Shown here: piece after piece, positions 1 to 15,914 of the stretch | How positions within the stretch are numbered: position 1 is the stretch's first letter | How the letters are laid out: each line of letters begins with the position of its first letter | Source of the DNA: a virus | Taxonomy: Duplodnaviria; Heunggongvirae; Uroviricota; Caudoviricetes | Virus record (IMG/VR): IMGVR_UViG_2609459831_000017 | Length of the DNA: 22,417 nt | Direction: 5' to 3' (one strand) | The notes under the pieces: model-generated | The model's input: only the letters and a program-made list of their open reading frames with translations | The model's database searches: none | What the model was told of the DNA's origin: nothing | Made by a program: the position numbers and the translations under genes

Positions 1-1284
1 TTACAGACTTCTGGAAGGTTGCGCAGCTCTTACAACACGCGGTTGATCTTCCGCAGCGTCTTCCAGCGCACTTAAATCACGGTCTTTCACCTCTGGCATT
101 TTCAGCGCAGAGATTAAACCAATCACTGAATATGCCATGATCATAATGGCGATCGGATACCAGGATTCCGTCATGGTGCAGAAAATACCCGCCAGGATAG
201 GACCAAAACCGGAAGCGATAAGACCACCAATTTCTTTAGAAATAGCCATCCGGGTAAAGCGGTTTTTACAGCCGAACATTTCTGCCATGGTAATGTTTTC
301 CAGAGCAAATAATCCCAGCACCGCACAGTTATGAATCACAATCAGTGCAACCATAATGGTGCTCGGGGCATAGCTTTTATCTACAATGATAGAAAGCATT
401 GGCCATGCCAGCACAATCGCGGAGGTATTCATAATAATATACGGGATCCGGCGACCAATTTTATCGGATAACCAACCAAGGAACGGAATGGTCATAAAGC
501 CGAGAATCGAACTGATCATCAATGCATCTGTTGGAATTGCTTTGTTAAACAATAACGTCTGCACTAAATAGCCTGCAAGGAAAGTCTGAATTAACTCGGA
601 GTTACCCGCCTGACCAAAACGCAGCCCTGTTGCCAGCCAGAAGGATTTGCTCTGGAACATGCTACCAGCAGGTGCAGGTTTTGCTGTCGGTTGGTTACTG
701 TCGTTAACCTTCTCAAAGACCGGGCTTTCTTTCAGATTCATACGCAACCAGATAGCAAAGACCATCACGACAACGCTCGCCAGGAACGGTATACGCCATC
801 CCCACGCCAGCAGTTCCTCTTTACTGAGAATGAAGAACATAAAGGCCCAGATTGCCGTTGCGCTCAAGGTTCCGCAGTTAGTTCCCATAGCCACAAATGA
901 GGAGATAATTCCGCGCTTACCTTTTGGCGCATATTCCGCCAGCATCGTACCGGCACCGGAAATTTCCGCACCTGCACCCAACCCCTGAATAATACGCAAC
1001 GTCACCAGCAAGATGGGTGCAAAAACACCAATCTGTGCATAGGTCGGTAACACACCAATTAAGGTGGTACAGATCCCCATCATGGTGATGGTAATAAAGA
1101 GCACTTTTTTACGCCCTATTCTGTCGCCCATTTTGCCGAAAATAAATGCTCCGACAATACGCGCCACATAACCTGCACCGTAGGTTCCCATTGCCAGAAT
1201 TAACGCCATTGCCGTTGATGATTCAGGAAAAAATATTTCATGAAACACTAACGCTGCGCCGAGCGAATATAACTGGAAATCCAT
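1..1284 (-). CDS. ydfJ: MFS transporter (metabolite:H+ symporter type), probably N-terminally truncated by the prophage insertion
   Basis: 427-aa ORF with ATG at 1282-1284 and TAA at 1-3. Multi-pass hydrophobic profile; the MFS loop 2-3 motif G-x-x-x-D-R-x-G-R-K (GKMGDRIGRKK) sits at residues ~50-60, leaving room for only one helix ahead of it. Confidence 0.85.
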   Translation of the reverse strand: MDFQLYSLGAALVFHEIFFPESSTAMALILAMGTYGAGYVARIVGAFIFGKMGDRIGRKKVLFITITMMGICTTLIGVLPTYAQIGVFAPILLVTLRIIQGLGAGAEISGAGTMLAEYAPKGKRGIISSFVAMGTNCGTLSATAIWAFMFFILSKEELLAWGWRIPFLASVVVMVFAIWLRMNLKESPVFEKVNDSNQPTAKPAPAGSMFQSKSFWLATGLRFGQAGNSELIQTFLAGYLVQTLLFNKAIPTDALMISSILGFMTIPFLGWLSDKIGRRIPYIIMNTSAIVLAWPMLSIIVDKSYAPSTIMVALIVIHNCAVLGLFALENITMAEMFGCKNRFTRMAISKEIGGLIASGFGPILAGIFCTMTESWYPIAIMIMAYSVIGLISALKMPEVKDRDLSALEDAAEDQPRVVRAAQPSRSL

Positions 1285-1886
1285 AATTCACAGGTGTTTT
1301 TTCCCATCCTGTGGTTTCCTTGGCGTTTTCTAGGTTTTTTCAGATAGTTGCATTTTTTAAAAAGCATCCTAAGTTCGATCTCAGTGTCTATCTGGGGCCT
1401 ATTTCTGTCCCATATATGCCCCAAAAAAACTCCCCAACAGATAAGTAGTTTTTTCATGGATTTATGCGTAAAATCAAGAACGGCTGGAAATCATTCAATA
1501 CTCACACTATCGAAAAATTTACCAGCCAACCGCAGCACGTTCTTGCATAAGGCGTGTCTGCGGTTTTTCAACTATTCAGATACATCACTCCCATCACATT
1601 CATTCCTCCGCATCAAAGGCATATAGGCTATATCACCTTGATATTTTTCTTTTTCAGATAAAAACTGTTATCTATGTATACTTTTAAACCCAATCCGTGT
1701 AGAGTCTCTGCATAAGATAGTTTGCAGTTGCCGCTTCAGCTTGCGCCATAACCGCCTGATTTTTGCTGCCACCTGTTAGCATTCCTGTATACCTGAAACG
1801 ACAATGTTTATCTACGAACTTTAAGAACACCCAAGATAAAAATTGTCAACTATATCATATATAACACATTACTAATTCGAGGCTAT

Positions 1887-2000
1887 ATGAACAGCATACT
1901 GATAATCACTTCTCTCCTTATCATATTCAGCATTTTTAGTCATGCCCTAATAAAATTAGGGATTGGCATATCCAATAACCCAGACAAAACCGATGTATAA
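1887..2000 (+). CDS. candidate small hydrophobic protein (37 aa, [37 protein letters not shown])
   Basis: ATG at 1887 preceded by GAGG at 1879-1882, TAA at 1998-2000. One predicted transmembrane helix plus a polar tail. Below the ORF-track cutoff; translated by hand. Confidence 0.3.
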
Positions 2001-2068
2001 GTCAACATATCCTGAATCAGACATACAATATCGCAATGAAAATCAATAATATTTTAAGGAATATCTTC

Positions 2069-2302
2069 ATGAAATCAAAAGACACCCTAAAGTGGTTCCC
2101 TGCGCAGCTTCCTGAAGTAAGAATTATCCTATGGGATGCTGTAGTGGAAGTAGCAAAACAGGGAAGACCTATCAATACCAGAACATTGCTTGATTACATT
2201 GAAGGAAACATAAAGAAAAAATCATGGCTGGATAACAAAGAATTATTACAAACAGCGATATCAGTTCTTAAAGACAACCAAAATTTAAATGGTAAAATGT
2301 AA
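2069..2302 (+). CDS. ydfK: YdfK/YnaE-family prophage protein (cold-shock-associated, function unknown)
   Basis: 77-aa product from ATG 2069 (MKSKDTLKWFPAQLPEV...) with AAGGA 9 nt upstream. Matches recalled K-12 YdfK/YnaE; the track ORF starts 11 codons earlier at 2036. Confidence 0.8.
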   Translation: MKSKDTLKWFPAQLPEVRIILWDAVVEVAKQGRPINTRTLLDYIEGNIKKKSWLDNKELLQTAISVLKDNQNLNGKM

Positions 2303-2618: not shown

Positions 2619-3209
2619 ATGTCTCGAATTTTTGCTTACTGTCGGATATCAACGCTGGATCAGACCACCGAAAATCAACGCCGGGAAATCGAAAGTGCAG
2701 GTTTTAAAATCAAACCTCAGCAAATAATCGAAGAACACATTAGCGGCTCAGCAGCAACCAGTGAGCGTCCTAGTTTTAACCGGTTGCTTGCTCGCCTGAA
2801 ATGTGGTGATCAATTGATTGTGACAAAACTGGATCGCCTTGGTTGTAATGCAATGGATATCAGGAAAACAGTGGAACAACTGACCGAAACAGGTATCAGA
2901 GTGCATTGCTTAGCATTGGGGGGCATTGACTTGACCAGTCCAACAGGAAAAATGATGATGCAAGTAATTTCAGCAGTTGCTGAATTTGAACGAGACCTTT
3001 TACTTGAACGCACTCATTCCGGGATAGTAAGAGCCCGCGGCGCAGGGAAACGTTTTGGTCGACCACCTGTGTTAAATGAAGAACAGAAACAGGTGGTATT
3101 CGAACGAATTAAGTCAGGTGTAAGTATAAGTGCCATTGCCCGGGAATTCAAAACCTCGCGGCAAACCATTTTAAGAGCCAAAGCAAAACTTCAGACACCT
3201 GACATATAA
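2619..3209 (+). CDS. pinQ: serine recombinase, DNA invertase (Pin/Gin/Hin family)
   Basis: 196 aa. N-terminal resolvase motif with catalytic Ser in YCRISTLDQ and a C-terminal helix-turn-helix; close match to recalled PinQ/PinE/Gin. Confidence 0.9.
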
Positions 3210-3306: not shown

Positions 3307-3882
3307 CTACGGCAGTGCTGGCCATTCAATATCCTGTGCAGTTGACGTATCAACACGGTTCAGCAATACCCGATACTTTTTCCATGCTTCCAGCAACGAG
3401 ATTTCTTCCTCCGTTGCAATTTCCAGATCTGCAGCATCCTGAAGCGGCGCAATATGCTCACTGGCTACCTGCATCAGGTTGTTTTTTGTTTCTTCCGCCT
3501 CCCGGATCCGGAACAGTTTTTCTGCTTCCGTATCCTTCACCCAGGCTGTGCCGTTCCACTTCTGAAACTCCCCTTCCGGCGATAACCAGGTAACATTTTT
3601 CGGTAACGGACCGAGTTCAGAAATAAATAACGCGTCGCCGGAAGCCACGTCATAAACCGTTTTACCCCGATGATCTTCAACGAGATGCCACGATGACTCA
3701 TCACTGTTGAAAACAGCCACGAAGCCAGCCGGAATATCTGGCGGTGCAATATCGGTACTGTTTGCTGGCAGACCTGTATGAGGCGGAATATATGCATCAC
3801 CTTCACCAATAAATTCATTAGTTCCGGCCAGCAGATTATAAATTGTTATGGTCCGTGGTTGTTCACTCATTCTGAATGCCAT
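3307..3882 (-). CDS. tfaQ: tail fiber assembly protein
   Basis: 191 aa; matches recalled TfaQ/lambda Tfa. Its start overlaps the stf stop (TAATG). Confidence 0.85.
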
Positions 3883-6800
3883 TATGCAAGCCTCACAATA
3901 TAGTTAAATGCGATGTTTTTGACGGTGTTTTCCGCGTTACCAGCAGCGTTAACGGTGATGGTGTGTCCATGTGAGCCAATCGCAACGGAGTGCGTATGAG
4001 CACCAATACCGACAGTATGTGCGTGTGCACCTGCGCTTGCAGCAGTACCCGATACAGAGTGCGTATGAGCGCCTGCAGAAGAAGTGTTAACACTGTATTT
4101 AGAATAATCAGGTGATCCACTTCCCGGAGCACCACTGGAACCACCTGAAACAAATGTCATCGAATGGGTATGTGCACCGGCTGAAGCAGCCGTACCGCTA
4201 ACACTATGGGTATGTGCACCAGTGTTATTCGTGGATTTAGTGCCGTAATCAAACGATGATGTGGTTTTCGTCCCCAAATCCGTACTGGATGCGCTGGCGC
4301 TGTGGGTGTGCGATTTAATGCCGTCCTGTTCCTGAGACAATACGGCACGACCACTGGCGGGCTTGCCCTTAATCGTCCAGCCACGCATATCAGGAATAAC
4401 GCCTGACGGATAAGCCACTGCAAGTTTCGGGTATGCAGATTTGTCAAAAGTCTGCCCCTGCATCAGGGCATAGCCAGACGGAACGGTATCTGATGGCCAC
4501 GGGATTGGTGCGCCGACTGGGTAGCTTTCTGGTGGAAGATTTTTCGAGGTATAAACTTCTGCCCAGTCATCCTCAAAACCATAACCGTCTCTTGAAGAAC
4601 GGTAGAACAGACCACCATTTCTGTAATGCGCCTTCATCTGCAAGGTCCGGCAACTTCCGACTCCGGTATAGAAGTTAACCAGAATATAGCTGTCGCCAGA
4701 GCGGGTGACATTGTAAGCACCTGATTCGGCATTCCAGGGAACGCCACCATCCGCATCGGCATATGTATCCGTTGCCCTTCTGGCAAAAGCAGCCACATGC
4801 GCGGCGGTTAAAGTAATATCTCTGGAACCATCAAACTCAACACCAGAAACCAGTCTTGGCGTTTGCAGCTTTGTTGCTGTTAATGCATTACCGTTCAGAC
4901 TTGCGGACAGTTTGGTTCCAATAACCAGTTCGCCGGTTGCGTTATAAATAGCAAACGGTCTTAATGTATTCCAGCCACCATAAACATCACCTTGATTGGT
5001 AAGCAGCAGGTAAGTTTTAGCGCCATCATTACGCCATAATGCACCATACTCCCCACCTATCATTCGAATCTGATTACCACCACGCGCTACAATTTCGTCT
5101 GTGGCAAAAAGTTTTTTGCACGACAAATTATCGTTAACGATTAACGAATGAGACTCATAAAAACCACGCCCACTCTTAAAATCAAGGATAACGTCCGCCG
5201 CGATACATTCAGTCGCTGGATTTGTTGCCCCAAACTTATAGGTCGTATCATTAACAACGAGATCAGCACCAGGTGCGGATATTGACAGGCCATCTTCGAT
5301 AAACGCAAAAACAGGGAAAGCAGCGCCATCAACATAGAACACAGAGCGCAAATCATCGCCCTTATTACTCATCATTATTGAGTGGATGGCTCGTTCATTG
5401 TTTTGATATTGCCAGAACATTCCATAAGCATAACGCCCCCTGTCAGTCCAGCCACCAGGCATAACAAATCCGTTAAACTCGCAGTTATTCATCGGATCGC
5501 CTGCGGTTCGCGTTGCCGTGGTGATAATGACCCTTGATGCCAGTTCGCTTACTGAGCCAGCAGAACGCATAACAACAACAGGGTAATATTTTCCAGATGT
5601 TGCACCTGCAGGAGCGTTAACCCGCACATAACGCATACCACGCTTATCAGCAAAGTCTGTTTTACTGACCGCGTTAATGTTGTTCAGGAAGCGTCCCTTA
5701 TCGGGTATATCAGTGCCGTTCTGGTCTTTCTGCAGACGTTTCTCTGCATTGTCATAGGCTGATTTTACTGCCTTTGGCGTTGCCGCCAGCGTTTCAGACG
5801 TACTGTTGGTCGCACTGCTGAGCTGTACTATCCCCTTTTTCGTCGTGCTCGCATCCTCAAGCGCCACGGCGGATGCAATATCCTCTGCCCGTTTTGCTGC
5901 TGTCTCGGCGCGCGTTGCCGCGGATTCCGCCGTACTTTTGCTCTGAGCTGCCGCCGTCGCACTGCCAGCTGCCTCTGTCGCCTTCGTGGATGCCGTCGTG
6001 GCGCTGCCCTTCGCTGCTGACGCCTGTCTGGTCGCCTCATCTTTTGAAGCAGACGCCGATGATGCCGATGACGCCGCCGAACTGGCTGACGATGCGGCAG
6101 CCGTTTTTGAGGATTCTGCGCTGGTTTCCGACGCTTTCGCGTTCGTTTCGGATGTCTTCGCTGCGGAAGCTGACCTCGCTGCTACCGTGGCCTGTTCAGT
6201 GGCTTCGCCAGCCTTCGTTGTGGCTGTTGAAGCGGATGATGCGGCGCTTTCTGCCGACTTTCCGGCAGCGGTGGCACTGGCTGAGGCCTGCCCGGCATTT
6301 GTTGACGCGGCGCTGGCAGATGAGGCAGCCGCTGTTTTTGAGTCTGCTGCTGCGGAGGCACTCTGTCCCGCTGCCGTCTCAGAAGACTTTGCGTTCGTCT
6401 CGGACGTTTTTGCCGCCTTCGCGGAAGTTCCTGCCGCTGTTGCCGAGGAGGCTGCACGACTGGCGCTCGAGGCTGCGCTCGTTTCTGATGATTTTGCCGC
6501 CTCTTTTGAAGCCGACGCATCCCTGGCTGAGGTGGCAGCTTCTGACGCTTTCGTGGTCGCGGTGGATGCAGAAGTGGCGGCTGATTGTTCTGACGCTGCC
6601 GCATTCGTTTCTGACGTTTTCGCCGCACCGGCACTGGTAGCCGCCGCGCTTTTTGAGGACTCTGCAGCGGCAGCACTTTTTGAGGCTTCAGTGGCCTTTG
6701 TTGATGCCGTTCCTGCGCTGGAAGACGCTGACTGAGCCGACGACGCGGCCTGTCCGGCTGACGTGCTGGCTGCACGTGCTGAATCTGCAGCATCAGTCGC

Positions 6801-7232
6801 ACGGGTTGCCGCCTCACTGGCAGATGTGCTGGCATCACTGGCTGACTTCTTTGCGGCTGCCGTGTTCTGTGCCACCACGGACGCGTTACGCGCCACCTCT
6901 TCCACCATCAGTTCAAAACGACGCAGTGCCTCCGGACGGGCATCATCCTCCGTCATGGCACCGAGAAAATCATTCAGCGTACCGGGTTGAGAATCTTCAT
7001 ACACGGTGATGGTCCCGGCATGTGACGGCGGGAATCCCTCCACCAACAGAATAACGCTGTACTGACCGTACTCAACGTCCATGCTGTAACGCCCGGCTTC
7101 ATCCGGATTTTCTGAGGCCAGCGTGTTCACCACCACAGTGGTACTGTTACGTTTTGCTTTCAGCTGGATTGTGCAGTTCTGTACCGGTTTTCCTGTGCCG
7201 TCTTTCAGTACACCTGAAATCTTTACTGCCAT
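3882..7232 (-). CDS. stfQ: side tail fiber protein, full length
   Basis: 1116 aa from ATG at 7230-7232 ([12 protein letters not shown]...) with GGGGTGA Shine-Dalgarno; the track ORF uses an upstream GTG at 7238. Conserved N-terminal baseplate-attachment region, long Ala/Ser/Thr-rich repeat block, and C-terminal His-rich GAHTHS repeats typical of lambda Stf/StfR. Confidence 0.85.
5885..6875 (-). repeat. imperfect tandem low-complexity coding repeats (Ala/Ser/Thr-rich) inside stf
   Basis: Reiterated motifs ([18 protein letters not shown]) in the Stf product. The GC-rich repeat DNA produces long artefactual ORFs in other frames on both strands of the track. Confidence 0.6.
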
Positions 7233-7234
7233 AT

Positions 7235-7381
7235 TCACCCCACAAAAAAGCCCGCCTGAACCGGCGGGCTGTCATAACACTGTGTTACCTGGCTAATGGC
7301 CATTGCGGCGGCACCGGGCACCGCCGTTTTGCTGATACGGCTGAGGTTTTCAACGGCCTGCTCAAGACCTTTTATGGCCAT
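7235..7381 (-). pseudogene. remnant of lambda tail gene Z (first ~29 codons only)
   Basis: Minus-strand ATG at 7379-7381, 12 nt downstream of the FII stop, translates MAIKGLEQAVENLSRISKTAVPGAAAMAI, matching the recalled lambda gpZ N-terminus, then diverges into unrelated sequence and stops at 7235-7237. Confidence 0.6.
7243..7270 (-). terminator. predicted intrinsic terminator immediately upstream of the stf ribosome-binding site
   Basis: 8-bp GC-rich stem (7249-7256 pairing 7263-7270) with a 6-nt loop, followed on the minus strand by TTTTTTG. Confidence 0.45.
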
Positions 7382-12308: not shown

Positions 12309-12514
12309 TTCATTTTCACTTTTTTAAATCCAACGACAGACGGCTGGCATTTAAGTATTGTGAAATATTATCAAATGTAATCATCATTGATTTACAAAAG
12401 ATACATTTTGCCCCGAAAGGATTCATGTCAGAAACATCAAAAGATGATGTTCTATACTGGGAACCATGACAACACGGGCATCTAAAGTGAATATGGTTTG
12501 TAATATTGTCTACC

Positions 12515-12727
12515 TCAAAGCGCCACTACATGAACAGCGGCAGGACCTTTAGGTCCGTTCTCAATACCAAATTCAACTTCCTGATTCTCAGTTAATGTTT
12601 TGAAATCGTTGCTCTGAATTGCTGAGAAATGGACAAACACATCTTTGCTGCCATCTTTCGGCGTGATGAAACCAAAACCTTTTTCAGGGTTAAACCATTT
12701 CACTAAACCAGTCATTTTGTTAGACAT
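12515..12727 (-). CDS. cspI: cold-shock protein, CspA family
   Basis: 70 aa ([38 protein letters not shown]...) with RNP1/RNP2 motifs (KGFGFI, VFVHF). Confidence 0.9.
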
Positions 12728-13089
12728 AATTATTACCTTTTGAAGAAATTAGCCCTTGGGCAGAATGGTCCGAAAAAAAATATCAGAGAGAAAAACCAAC
12801 AAGGAAATCTCAAGAGGTACAAATAATAAAATTATAACAATGACTGCTTCAGATAAATTTGTAACAAACCAGAACACCATTAACGCATGATTAACCACCC
12901 ATAGCAAGGATTACTTTTGTAAAGAAAAACACAGCAATGAAAGAATAGCTTTATTTATTAATAAAACGTGTCATTCTGATTAAGACCTTTTATCTTACCC
13001 TTAAGATTTCAGGAATTTTGGCTCATGGAAGAGTCCTTTTTATTTAAATTTTACATTCCGCGATGTAAATGTTCCGATTTAATATTACC

Positions 13090-15117: not shown

Positions 15118-15398
15118 GAGATTGTGGTGCTTTTTGTGGGAGTCATCCACTTACGCACTTTGTTTTGCCATGCCAGCAGTTAGCTTCTGCTGTAAAACTA
15201 TTCATGCAGCAAACCTGCACTTCACCACAATGGTTAGCATACTTTTCCTGATTAAGATTTTGCCAAATATGCTAGCCATTGTTTCATGTATTGGACCTCC
15301 TTACTTTTTATTAAAGAGATCCAATATTCACTACTCTGTCCGTATCTCTACTCAGGCATCAGCCTTCTTCGTTATCGTATACAGACGAGCGATGAATT

Positions 15399-15614
15399 TT
15401 AATCAGTAATGATGACATTTGCTGCTGCAGGACCTTTAGCACCACTCTCTATAGAGAAGGTAACCTTTTGACCTTCAAATAAGGTTCGATAATTATCATT
15501 CTGAATCGCAGAAAAATGCACAAACACATCTTTACTACCATCAACAGGAGAAATAAAGCCGAAACCTTTATCAGCGTTAAACCATTTTACTAAACCAGTC
15601 ATTTTATTTGACAT
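15399..15614 (-). CDS. cspB: cold-shock protein, CspA family
   Basis: 71 aa ([53 protein letters not shown]...). Confidence 0.9.
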
Positions 15615-15914
15615 TCTACATTCCTTAACTTGAGCCTTTCGGCATAAATGGTTTGCATAACAGAAACGACTTCGTACTTAATTGGAGAGACTCAAAGAAG
15701 GAATAAGTGAATAACACCTGAAATGAGAACTGCTTTAGTAAACTACTTCGTATATCGTCTGTTCTTCAAACCGACGCAATCATTAACGCATAGTTGAACA
15801 TATGAAGCAATGTTTATTTTAGACATCCAGCCATCTTCAACCCCATCAAAAAACTATAGCTTTCTTCAGGAACGTGTGTATAGTGCGCCAAGTTATCAGT
15901 ATTAAGGAATTTTT

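Follow-up and report, generated by a model that had tools for sequence, protein, structure and literature searches.

At the edge of a Qin-type prophage, a 37-codon open reading frame (ORF) lies just upstream of ydfK, and the question is whether it is a gene and, if so, what kind of protein it encodes. A sequence-only reading had taken it for an unannotated ORF with a GAGG ribosome-binding site, encoding one hydrophobic helix with a polar tail, and had likened the product both to small membrane proteins and to type I toxin peptides. Here 'the window' refers to the whole 22,417-nucleotide stretch of viral DNA that was analyzed (IMG/VR record IMGVR_UViG_2609459831_000017), and positions are counted on it unless stated otherwise.

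ORF and its location in the window

The window begins with ydfJ′ (1–1284, minus strand), followed by a 784-bp gap, ydfK, pinQ (2619–3209), tfaQ (3307–3882, minus strand) and a tail-fiber gene. The gap, measured from the ydfJ′ start codon (1284) to ydfK, is close to the intergenic length of ~750 bp first given. Placement at the prophage edge also holds, as the K-12 record sets the Qin boundary 8 nt inside ydfJ and the K-12 copy of the ORF lies ~600 bp inside this annotated boundary.

In the ORF listing of the window, the frame has an ATG start, a TAA stop at 1998–2000 and 37 amino acids, with coordinates, start and sequence being the same as in the first reading, and the GAGG site is read directly in front of it (Table 1). 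The single hydrophobic helix and the polar tail are also borne out by prediction. The 19-residue Kyte-Doolittle maximum is 2.52, at residues 4–22. The AlphaFold2 (AF2) model, for which the input was an alignment of 15 natural variants, is a single helix of residues 2–29 followed by a disordered tail, and its pLDDT is 93–94 for the first 20 residues.

The length of the ORF by itself is not beyond chance: when the intergenic region is shuffled by mononucleotides, 96% of the shuffles have an ORF of at least 37 amino acids, and the real region has five. If the 19-residue Kyte-Doolittle maximum of the ORF must also reach 2.52, such an ORF is found in only 0.8% of the shuffles. A perfect 7-bp inverted repeat, CCCTAAT-AAA-ATTAGGG, is located inside the ORF (1918–1936, plus strand, codons 21–25), but it is probably incidental because the Salmonella copy lacks it.

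Table 1 Features at and around the small ORF, in window coordinates
Feature	Position	Strand	Description
Promoter-like TTCAGA-18-TATACT	1653..1682	+	From consensus scan; overlaps repeat copy 1
Block AGATAAAAATTGTCAACTAT	1834..1853	+	Sole upstream DNA common to the Salmonella cassette
Shine-Dalgarno (SD) GAGG	1879..1882	+	Read directly; 4 nt (CTAT) before the ATG of ynfT
ynfT CDS	1887..2000	+	37 codons and TAA; YnaM/YnfT family
Predicted transmembrane helix, ynfT codons 4–28	1896..1970	+	Kyte-Doolittle and AF2
Polar tail SNNPDKTDV, ynfT codons 29–37	1971..1997	+	Conserved across variants; disordered in the AF2 model
ynfT-ydfK spacer	2001..2068	+	68 nt; conserved blocks AACATATCCTGAATCA and AAAATCAATAATATTTTAAGGAA
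ydfK	2069..2302	+	77 aa; PF27475 YnaE family; linked gene downstream of ynfT

The ORF is the catalogued gene ynfT

The ORF is the already catalogued ynfT (b4748), which is the Qin-prophage copy of ynaM. When positions 1285–2620 were compared by megablast with 5426 complete E. coli genomes, the ORF was found labeled as 'ynfT: YnaM/YnfT family protein'. The CDS WP_120795384.1 of strain 1303 (ynfT; L001 2103–2216) maps exactly to the window ORF, and K-12 MG1655 has ynfT at 1632890–1633003 in its Qin prophage. The protein from ynaM (b4744) in the Rac prophage is identical to YnfT, and both K-12 genes occupy the same site as the window copy, namely the prophage end, with ydfK/ynaE and pin downstream. 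The coordinates correspond one to one, and there is no substantive difference between the K-12 and window copies.

Family models agree with this identity. YnfT scores 96.2 bits with Pfam PF23676 (cut-off 27), covering residues 1–37 of 37, and 63.9 bits with NCBIfam NF041477 (cut-off 35). The sequence equals UniProt YNAM_ECOLI, and according to a cluster look-up at least 999 contigs carry exactly this sequence. Of 40 spread-sampled genomes, 39 have the ORF called by PGAP, which annotates the gene in thousands of E. coli genomes. Calling the ORF unannotated was therefore wrong, as it is ynfT both in the K-12 reference and in PGAP; gene, translation and family models were all on record before.

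As for the name, the Qin copy was called 'ynfQ' in an earlier study (PMC6001520), but ynfQ now designates another Qin gene and ynfT is current. A 2024 survey still counted ynfT among uncharacterized genes (PMC11551758), and PHROGs places YnfT in phrog_35882 with 'unknown function'. PADLOC gave no match to YnfT. A literature search under b4744 and b4748 found nothing relevant, and mentions of ydfK in papers on phage resistance and on single cells contained no functional information.

Conservation and selection

Family members were sought by HMMER across all 1.84 billion cluster representatives, by an exact-sequence look-up in clusters, and by means of ydfK homologues as anchors. Against phages, tblastn masked the hydrophobic part and matched residues 23–37 only, and a DNA search was used instead. 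The YnaM/YnfT family turned out to be very narrow, with four clusters among the 1.84 billion representatives; the 90% clusters have 164 members for the E. coli type and 41 for the Salmonella type.

Three diverged lineages were found, in which the ORF is 37, 37 and 39 amino acids long. First, the E. coli type occurs in Qin, in Rac and in intact lambdoid phages including mEp460, 2H10, Tritos and HannyBb. Second, the Salmonella type occurs in phage 118970_sal3 and in Salmonella genomes, beside Mu/P2-like baseplate and tail genes, in a prophage of myovirus type, and without pin. Third, a metagenomic contig (L018) carries the 39-residue form, which is followed after 27 nt by a YdfK of 71% identity.

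The differences between these lineages clearly point to purifying selection. Between the E. coli and Salmonella types, third codon positions account for 14 of the 22 differences (binomial p = 0.003), and dN/dS is 0.092 with dS of 1.08, as compared with dN/dS of 0.091 and dS of 0.90 for ydfK. Between the E. coli type and the metagenomic type, dN/dS is 0.119 and the third-position bias has p = 0.01. In the tail, S29, N30, N31, P32, K34 and D36 are invariant across 15 full-length variants, and the third lineage, too, has the motif GIGISNNPD(K/R)TD. GAGG is kept at the same spacing in the Salmonella cassette, and the metagenomic contig has AAGGA at a similar spacing.

Thus, ynfT is a genuine protein-coding gene, and purifying selection on the encoded peptide is strong. 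Conservation of the ORF itself, beyond that of the DNA, had been proposed as a check, and the retention of frame, SD and tail in three lineages favors the genuine gene.

Evidence for translation in K-12

An epitope-tag reporter had been proposed as another check, and the tagged product was in fact detected in earlier work, which also favors a genuine gene. In 2018, VanOrsdel et al. SPA-tagged 80 small ORFs on the chromosome (PMC6001520), and their Table 1 of 'SPs detected' includes NC_000913.3:1632890-1633003, with the same sequence as ynfT. According to the same study, both copies were also positive when ribosomes were profiled with tetracycline. For YnaM-SPA in LB, Weaver et al. (bioRxiv 10.1101/511675) report a level above most newly found small proteins, and no initiation peak for YnaM with Onc112 or retapamulin.

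Between the Rac and Qin copies of K-12, the only differences are three synonymous ones, at +23, +26 and +59, and the stretch from −53 to +22, which includes the start, is the same in both. The missing initiation peak is probably accounted for by these identical starts, because footprints from them would map to both places.

Linkage to ydfK and phage context

Of the 5426 complete genomes of E. coli, 2804 have the ynfT segment (at 3384 places) and 2803 have the ydfK segment (at 3371 places), so that the cassette of the two occurs in ~52% of the genomes with one to three copies each. The two conserved blocks of the intervening spacer are shared with Salmonella, and one of them contains the ydfK SD and an AT-rich element published as a predicted Fur box. 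Chen et al. (PMC2189734) predicted in 2007 a 17.1-bit Fur cluster centered at +8 of the ydfK start annotated at that time; this former start is the ATG at 2036, and therefore the cluster center is at about 2044 in the window. No terminator-like site was found in the spacer, which makes co-transcription of ynfT and ydfK probable.

In lambdoid phages, mEp460 and 2H10 among them, the gene order is int/attP, ynfT, ydfK, pin, tfa and stf. Being located between int/attP and the tail-fiber genes of intact lambdoid phages, the cassette behaves like a two-gene moron: it lies in a non-essential phage region, it is mobile between phage types, and its expression from a prophage was reported (PMC6001520).

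The cassette shares its non-essential lambdoid region, from the tail-fiber genes to attP/int, and its expression from a prophage with HK97 gp15 and the lambda morons lom and bor, but YnfT has no homology to them. HK97 gp15 acts in superinfection exclusion, and lambda lom and bor are lysogenic-conversion genes.

The Salmonella cassette (L020/L021 2143–3234) consists of a 70-aa YnaE-family paralogue, a 137-aa protein without Pfam match, YnaM, and a 77-aa YnaE/YdfK. It is flanked by umuDC-like genes and by Mu/P2-like tail genes.

More distant YdfK homologues at 54–63% identity (L007–L014; from Enterobacter, E. coli elements and Limnobaculum) are not preceded by a YnaM-like ORF, and the coupling of ynfT to ydfK is therefore not obligatory. 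These homologues adjoin a divergently transcribed, small zinc-ribbon-like gene of the YnfU family (PF23499), which suggests that the YnaE/YdfK family has alternative small-protein partners.

YdfK itself is modeled by AF2 as a helical bundle with pLDDT of 69.5. Its best match in the PDB is E. coli YmgB/AriR (2OXL), with a query-normalized TM-score of 0.69, rmsd of 1.7 Å over 59 columns and E = 0.13. As the model is only moderately confident, the match is a lead rather than a result, and a low-confidence one, for the annotated 'cold shock protein' YdfK being a small regulator like AriR or Hha.

Upstream DNA and candidate promoters

Homology between the E. coli and Salmonella cassettes begins at 1834 with the block AGATAAAAATTGTCAACTAT, and a related motif is found in the metagenomic contig. 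This block is a candidate part of a weak proximal promoter. A scan of the conserved 55 bp upstream of ynfT for a sigma-70 promoter gave only poor combinations of −35 and −10 elements.

The same block is the second copy of a direct repeat on the plus strand, matching AGATAAAAACTGTTATCTAT (1656–1675) at 17 of 20 positions from 178 bp away, a level of marginal significance that was reached in 4 of 100 shuffles. Of the two copies, the first forms an AGATAA-N6-TTATCT palindrome within the promoter-like TTCAGA-18-TATACT site, and the repeat may represent a duplicated promoter or operator. Rac-type, 2H10 and mEp460 copies all retain the TTCAGA-18-TATACT site and Salmonella lacks it, and the site is a possible distal promoter in E. 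coli-type cassettes. Promoter-like sites as a whole are at the shuffle level (7 vs 5.5 ± 2.8). Published gSELEX motifs for ydfK and ynaE were considered as a shared promoter and rejected, since they map outside the cassette (in ydfJ at 882–909, and beyond ttcC).

About 360 bp of upstream non-coding DNA is conserved among E. coli-type copies. The Salmonella cassette lacks this stretch together with the distal repeat copy and a hairpin described below, and has its 137-aa gene ending 47 nt upstream.

Farther upstream is an element of ~100 bp (1467–1567, plus strand) that has the hairpin at ~1531–1567 and terminates in CCGCAGCACG...CGTGTCTGCGG followed by TTTTT. Copies with 84–92% identity are present in nearly all E. 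coli genomes, for example unannotated beside ybhB, and it is mostly through this element that 5377 of the 5426 genomes match 1285–2620. Phage records with the element number 211; lambda, which has it between the homologues of ea31 and ea47, is one of them, as are Stx phages, phiP27 and HK106.

On the minus strand, the hairpin resembles the 3′ end of CssrB in Rfam, with 25 bits against a threshold of 76, and a literature search on CssrB found nothing relevant. The element is probably a conserved terminator module of the lambdoid b-region. Its identification as a sib/tI retroregulator was rejected, as the lambda homologue lies between the ea31 and ea47 homologues and not beside attP.

A probable small membrane protein with a conserved tail

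That the product is a small membrane protein is supported by the predicted hydrophobic helix, by purifying selection and by detection of the tagged protein (PMC6001520). We consider it very probable, taking the parts jointly, that ynfT is a genuine gene encoding a non-toxic single-pass modulator in the inner membrane, which is expressed from the prophage and carried with ydfK as a phage accessory.

The ynfT-ydfK cassette travels in the accessory region of a phage, which integration turns into the prophage edge. According to the literature, the tagged product accumulates in uninduced K-12, so that ynfT is expressed from the resident cryptic prophage. YnfT is predicted to insert into the inner membrane as a bitopic protein. 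An N-out/C-in topology is predicted because the only K/R residues (K23 and K34) are C-terminal to the hydrophobic core, but this positive-inside call is weak since the tail is net negative. By analogy with other small membrane proteins, the helix and the conserved cytoplasmic tail would most likely bind a larger protein and modulate it, conferring a benefit on the lysogen or serving as an accessory (moron) function of the phage. Action as a pore-forming type I toxin is improbable. The conserved tail is compatible with a specific protein contact.

The class of proteins to which YnfT would be compared includes AcrZ, MgtS, MgrB, SgrT and KdpF. Like them, YnfT is shorter than 50 amino acids, has one predicted transmembrane helix, was detected with the same tagging method and, judging from the tagged form, is non-toxic at its native level. 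AcrZ, MgtS, MgrB, SgrT and KdpF are encoded in the core genome, whereas YnfT is phage-borne and confined to prophages of the E. coli and Salmonella types. The resemblance to the AcrZ/MgtS class is one of functional analogy, not of homology.

A more specific proposal is that YnaM/YnfT serves as the membrane anchor of a two-protein module, in which the conserved cytoplasmic tail would recruit or control YdfK and thereby alter envelope or stress physiology of the host or exclude superinfecting phages. We regard this as unlikely. If true, the module would be a previously uncharacterized lysogenic-conversion function in about half of E. coli genomes. Purifying selection on the cassette is clear, and 52% of complete E. 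coli genomes carry it, often in two or three copies, as do intact temperate phages. Conservation in three lineages, linkage to ydfK, the lack of the small ORF beside distant ydfK homologues and the lack of toxin hallmarks narrow the hypotheses worth testing. A genetic test in K-12 must remove both paralogues, ynaM and ynfT.

Alternative explanations

YnfT could instead be a type I toxin, that is, a membrane-depolarizing peptide held in check by an antisense or divergent small RNA (sRNA). It is alike in size, hydrophobic helix and prophage intergenic location to Hok, Ldr, Ibs, TisB, ShoB, ZorO and DinQ, and it gives a weak, composition-driven match to the PepG1 model (E = 0.055). However, this match has 13.1 bits where the cut-off is 70, and it is the only one to a toxin family, the Pfam assignment being to YnaM only. 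The acidic tail also differs from the basic one of such toxins; C-termini of Ldr/Fst-type toxins are typically basic or aromatic.

An antitoxin RNA was sought on either side of the gene, including a divergent sRNA like IstR, OhsC or OrzO. A promoter-like site on the minus strand (2078→2051) is located in the spacer downstream of ynfT, and the conserved upstream DNA with its CssrB-like hairpin and 17/20 repeat makes complementarity between an sRNA and the leader possible in principle. Against this, the promoter-like sites and the repeat stand at or near the shuffle levels given above, and the sRNA-capable upstream DNA is missing from the Salmonella cassette. No terminator-like site was found on the minus strand near ynfT, no segment of at least 12 nt complementary to the ynfT ORF region was found nearby, and no Rfam family covers the ORF; the computational scans showed no candidate antitoxin sRNA. 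The suggested antisense RNA on the opposite strand was thus not found by Rfam, by promoter and terminator scans or by folding, where the antisense z-score is −0.40.

The sense strand lacks the leader of these toxins as well. In the minimum-free-energy fold of the E. coli sequence, GAGG is unpaired, so that the SD is not occluded. Sense folding z-scores are −0.83 for E. coli and −0.76 for Salmonella, and the folds are not conserved between the lineages. A structured RNA overlapping the ORF would depress its synonymous divergence, but dS of ynfT is not depressed relative to that of ydfK.

YnaM-SPA accumulates in unstressed cells (bioRxiv 10.1101/511675), which is not expected of a toxin, although the tag could inactivate a toxic peptide, so that accumulation of the tagged form is compatible with toxicity of the native one. 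Taken together, families, folding, sRNA scans, dS, the Salmonella context and tagged-protein accumulation do not support the type I toxin interpretation, and we judge it quite unlikely.

According to another explanation, which we judge highly unlikely, ynfT is a cis-acting upstream ORF or leader that tunes cold-induced ydfK, the peptide being dispensable. ynfT precedes ydfK closely on the same strand with no terminator between them, the two are linked near-perfectly in E. coli, blocks of the spacer are conserved across lineages, and the RefSeq/PGAP name for ydfK is cold shock protein. Purifying selection, on the other hand, acts on the whole peptide including the conserved tail (dN/dS 0.09–0.12), and a stable tagged product accumulates. 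Moreover, the spacer varies among the lineages (68, 74 and 27 nt) without a conserved alternative RNA structure. The leader role is unlikely because the peptide is under selection and because the YdfK homologues at 54–63% identity have no such small ORF.

That ynfT is a chance frame in AT-rich prophage DNA with no functional product is effectively refuted, for although frames of this length are common in shuffles and AT-rich DNA favors Ile, Leu and Phe codons, third-position bias and omega of ~0.1 in two independent comparisons, retention of frame and SD in three lineages and experimental detection of the protein all speak against it.

Other features of the window

With the reading as a phage-borne small membrane protein preferred for ynfT, several features elsewhere in the window are recorded here. 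The best match of the whole region is E. coli strain 1303 (99.9%), not K-12, so that the window derives from an E. coli other than K-12 with a Qin-type prophage at ydfJ. Differing from K-12, the Qin-type prophage of the window has a full-length tail-fiber gene (3882–7238, minus strand), an ORF of 1118 amino acids with long Ala/Ser-rich repeats.

Rfam IS009 (RF02111) matches 3341–3539 on the minus strand, within the tfaQ coding region, with 220.9 bits, which exceeds the gathering score. By Rfam search, neither a cspA-like cold-shock leader nor any sRNA lies over the ynfT ORF, and ynfT and ydfK have no leader of the RF01766 type. Two full-length cspA-type thermoregulator 5′ UTRs (RF01766) are found at 12488–12873 and 15383–15775, both on the minus strand, with 112.8 and 158.8 bits, respectively; they are presumably those of cspI and cspB, the cold-shock genes of Qin.
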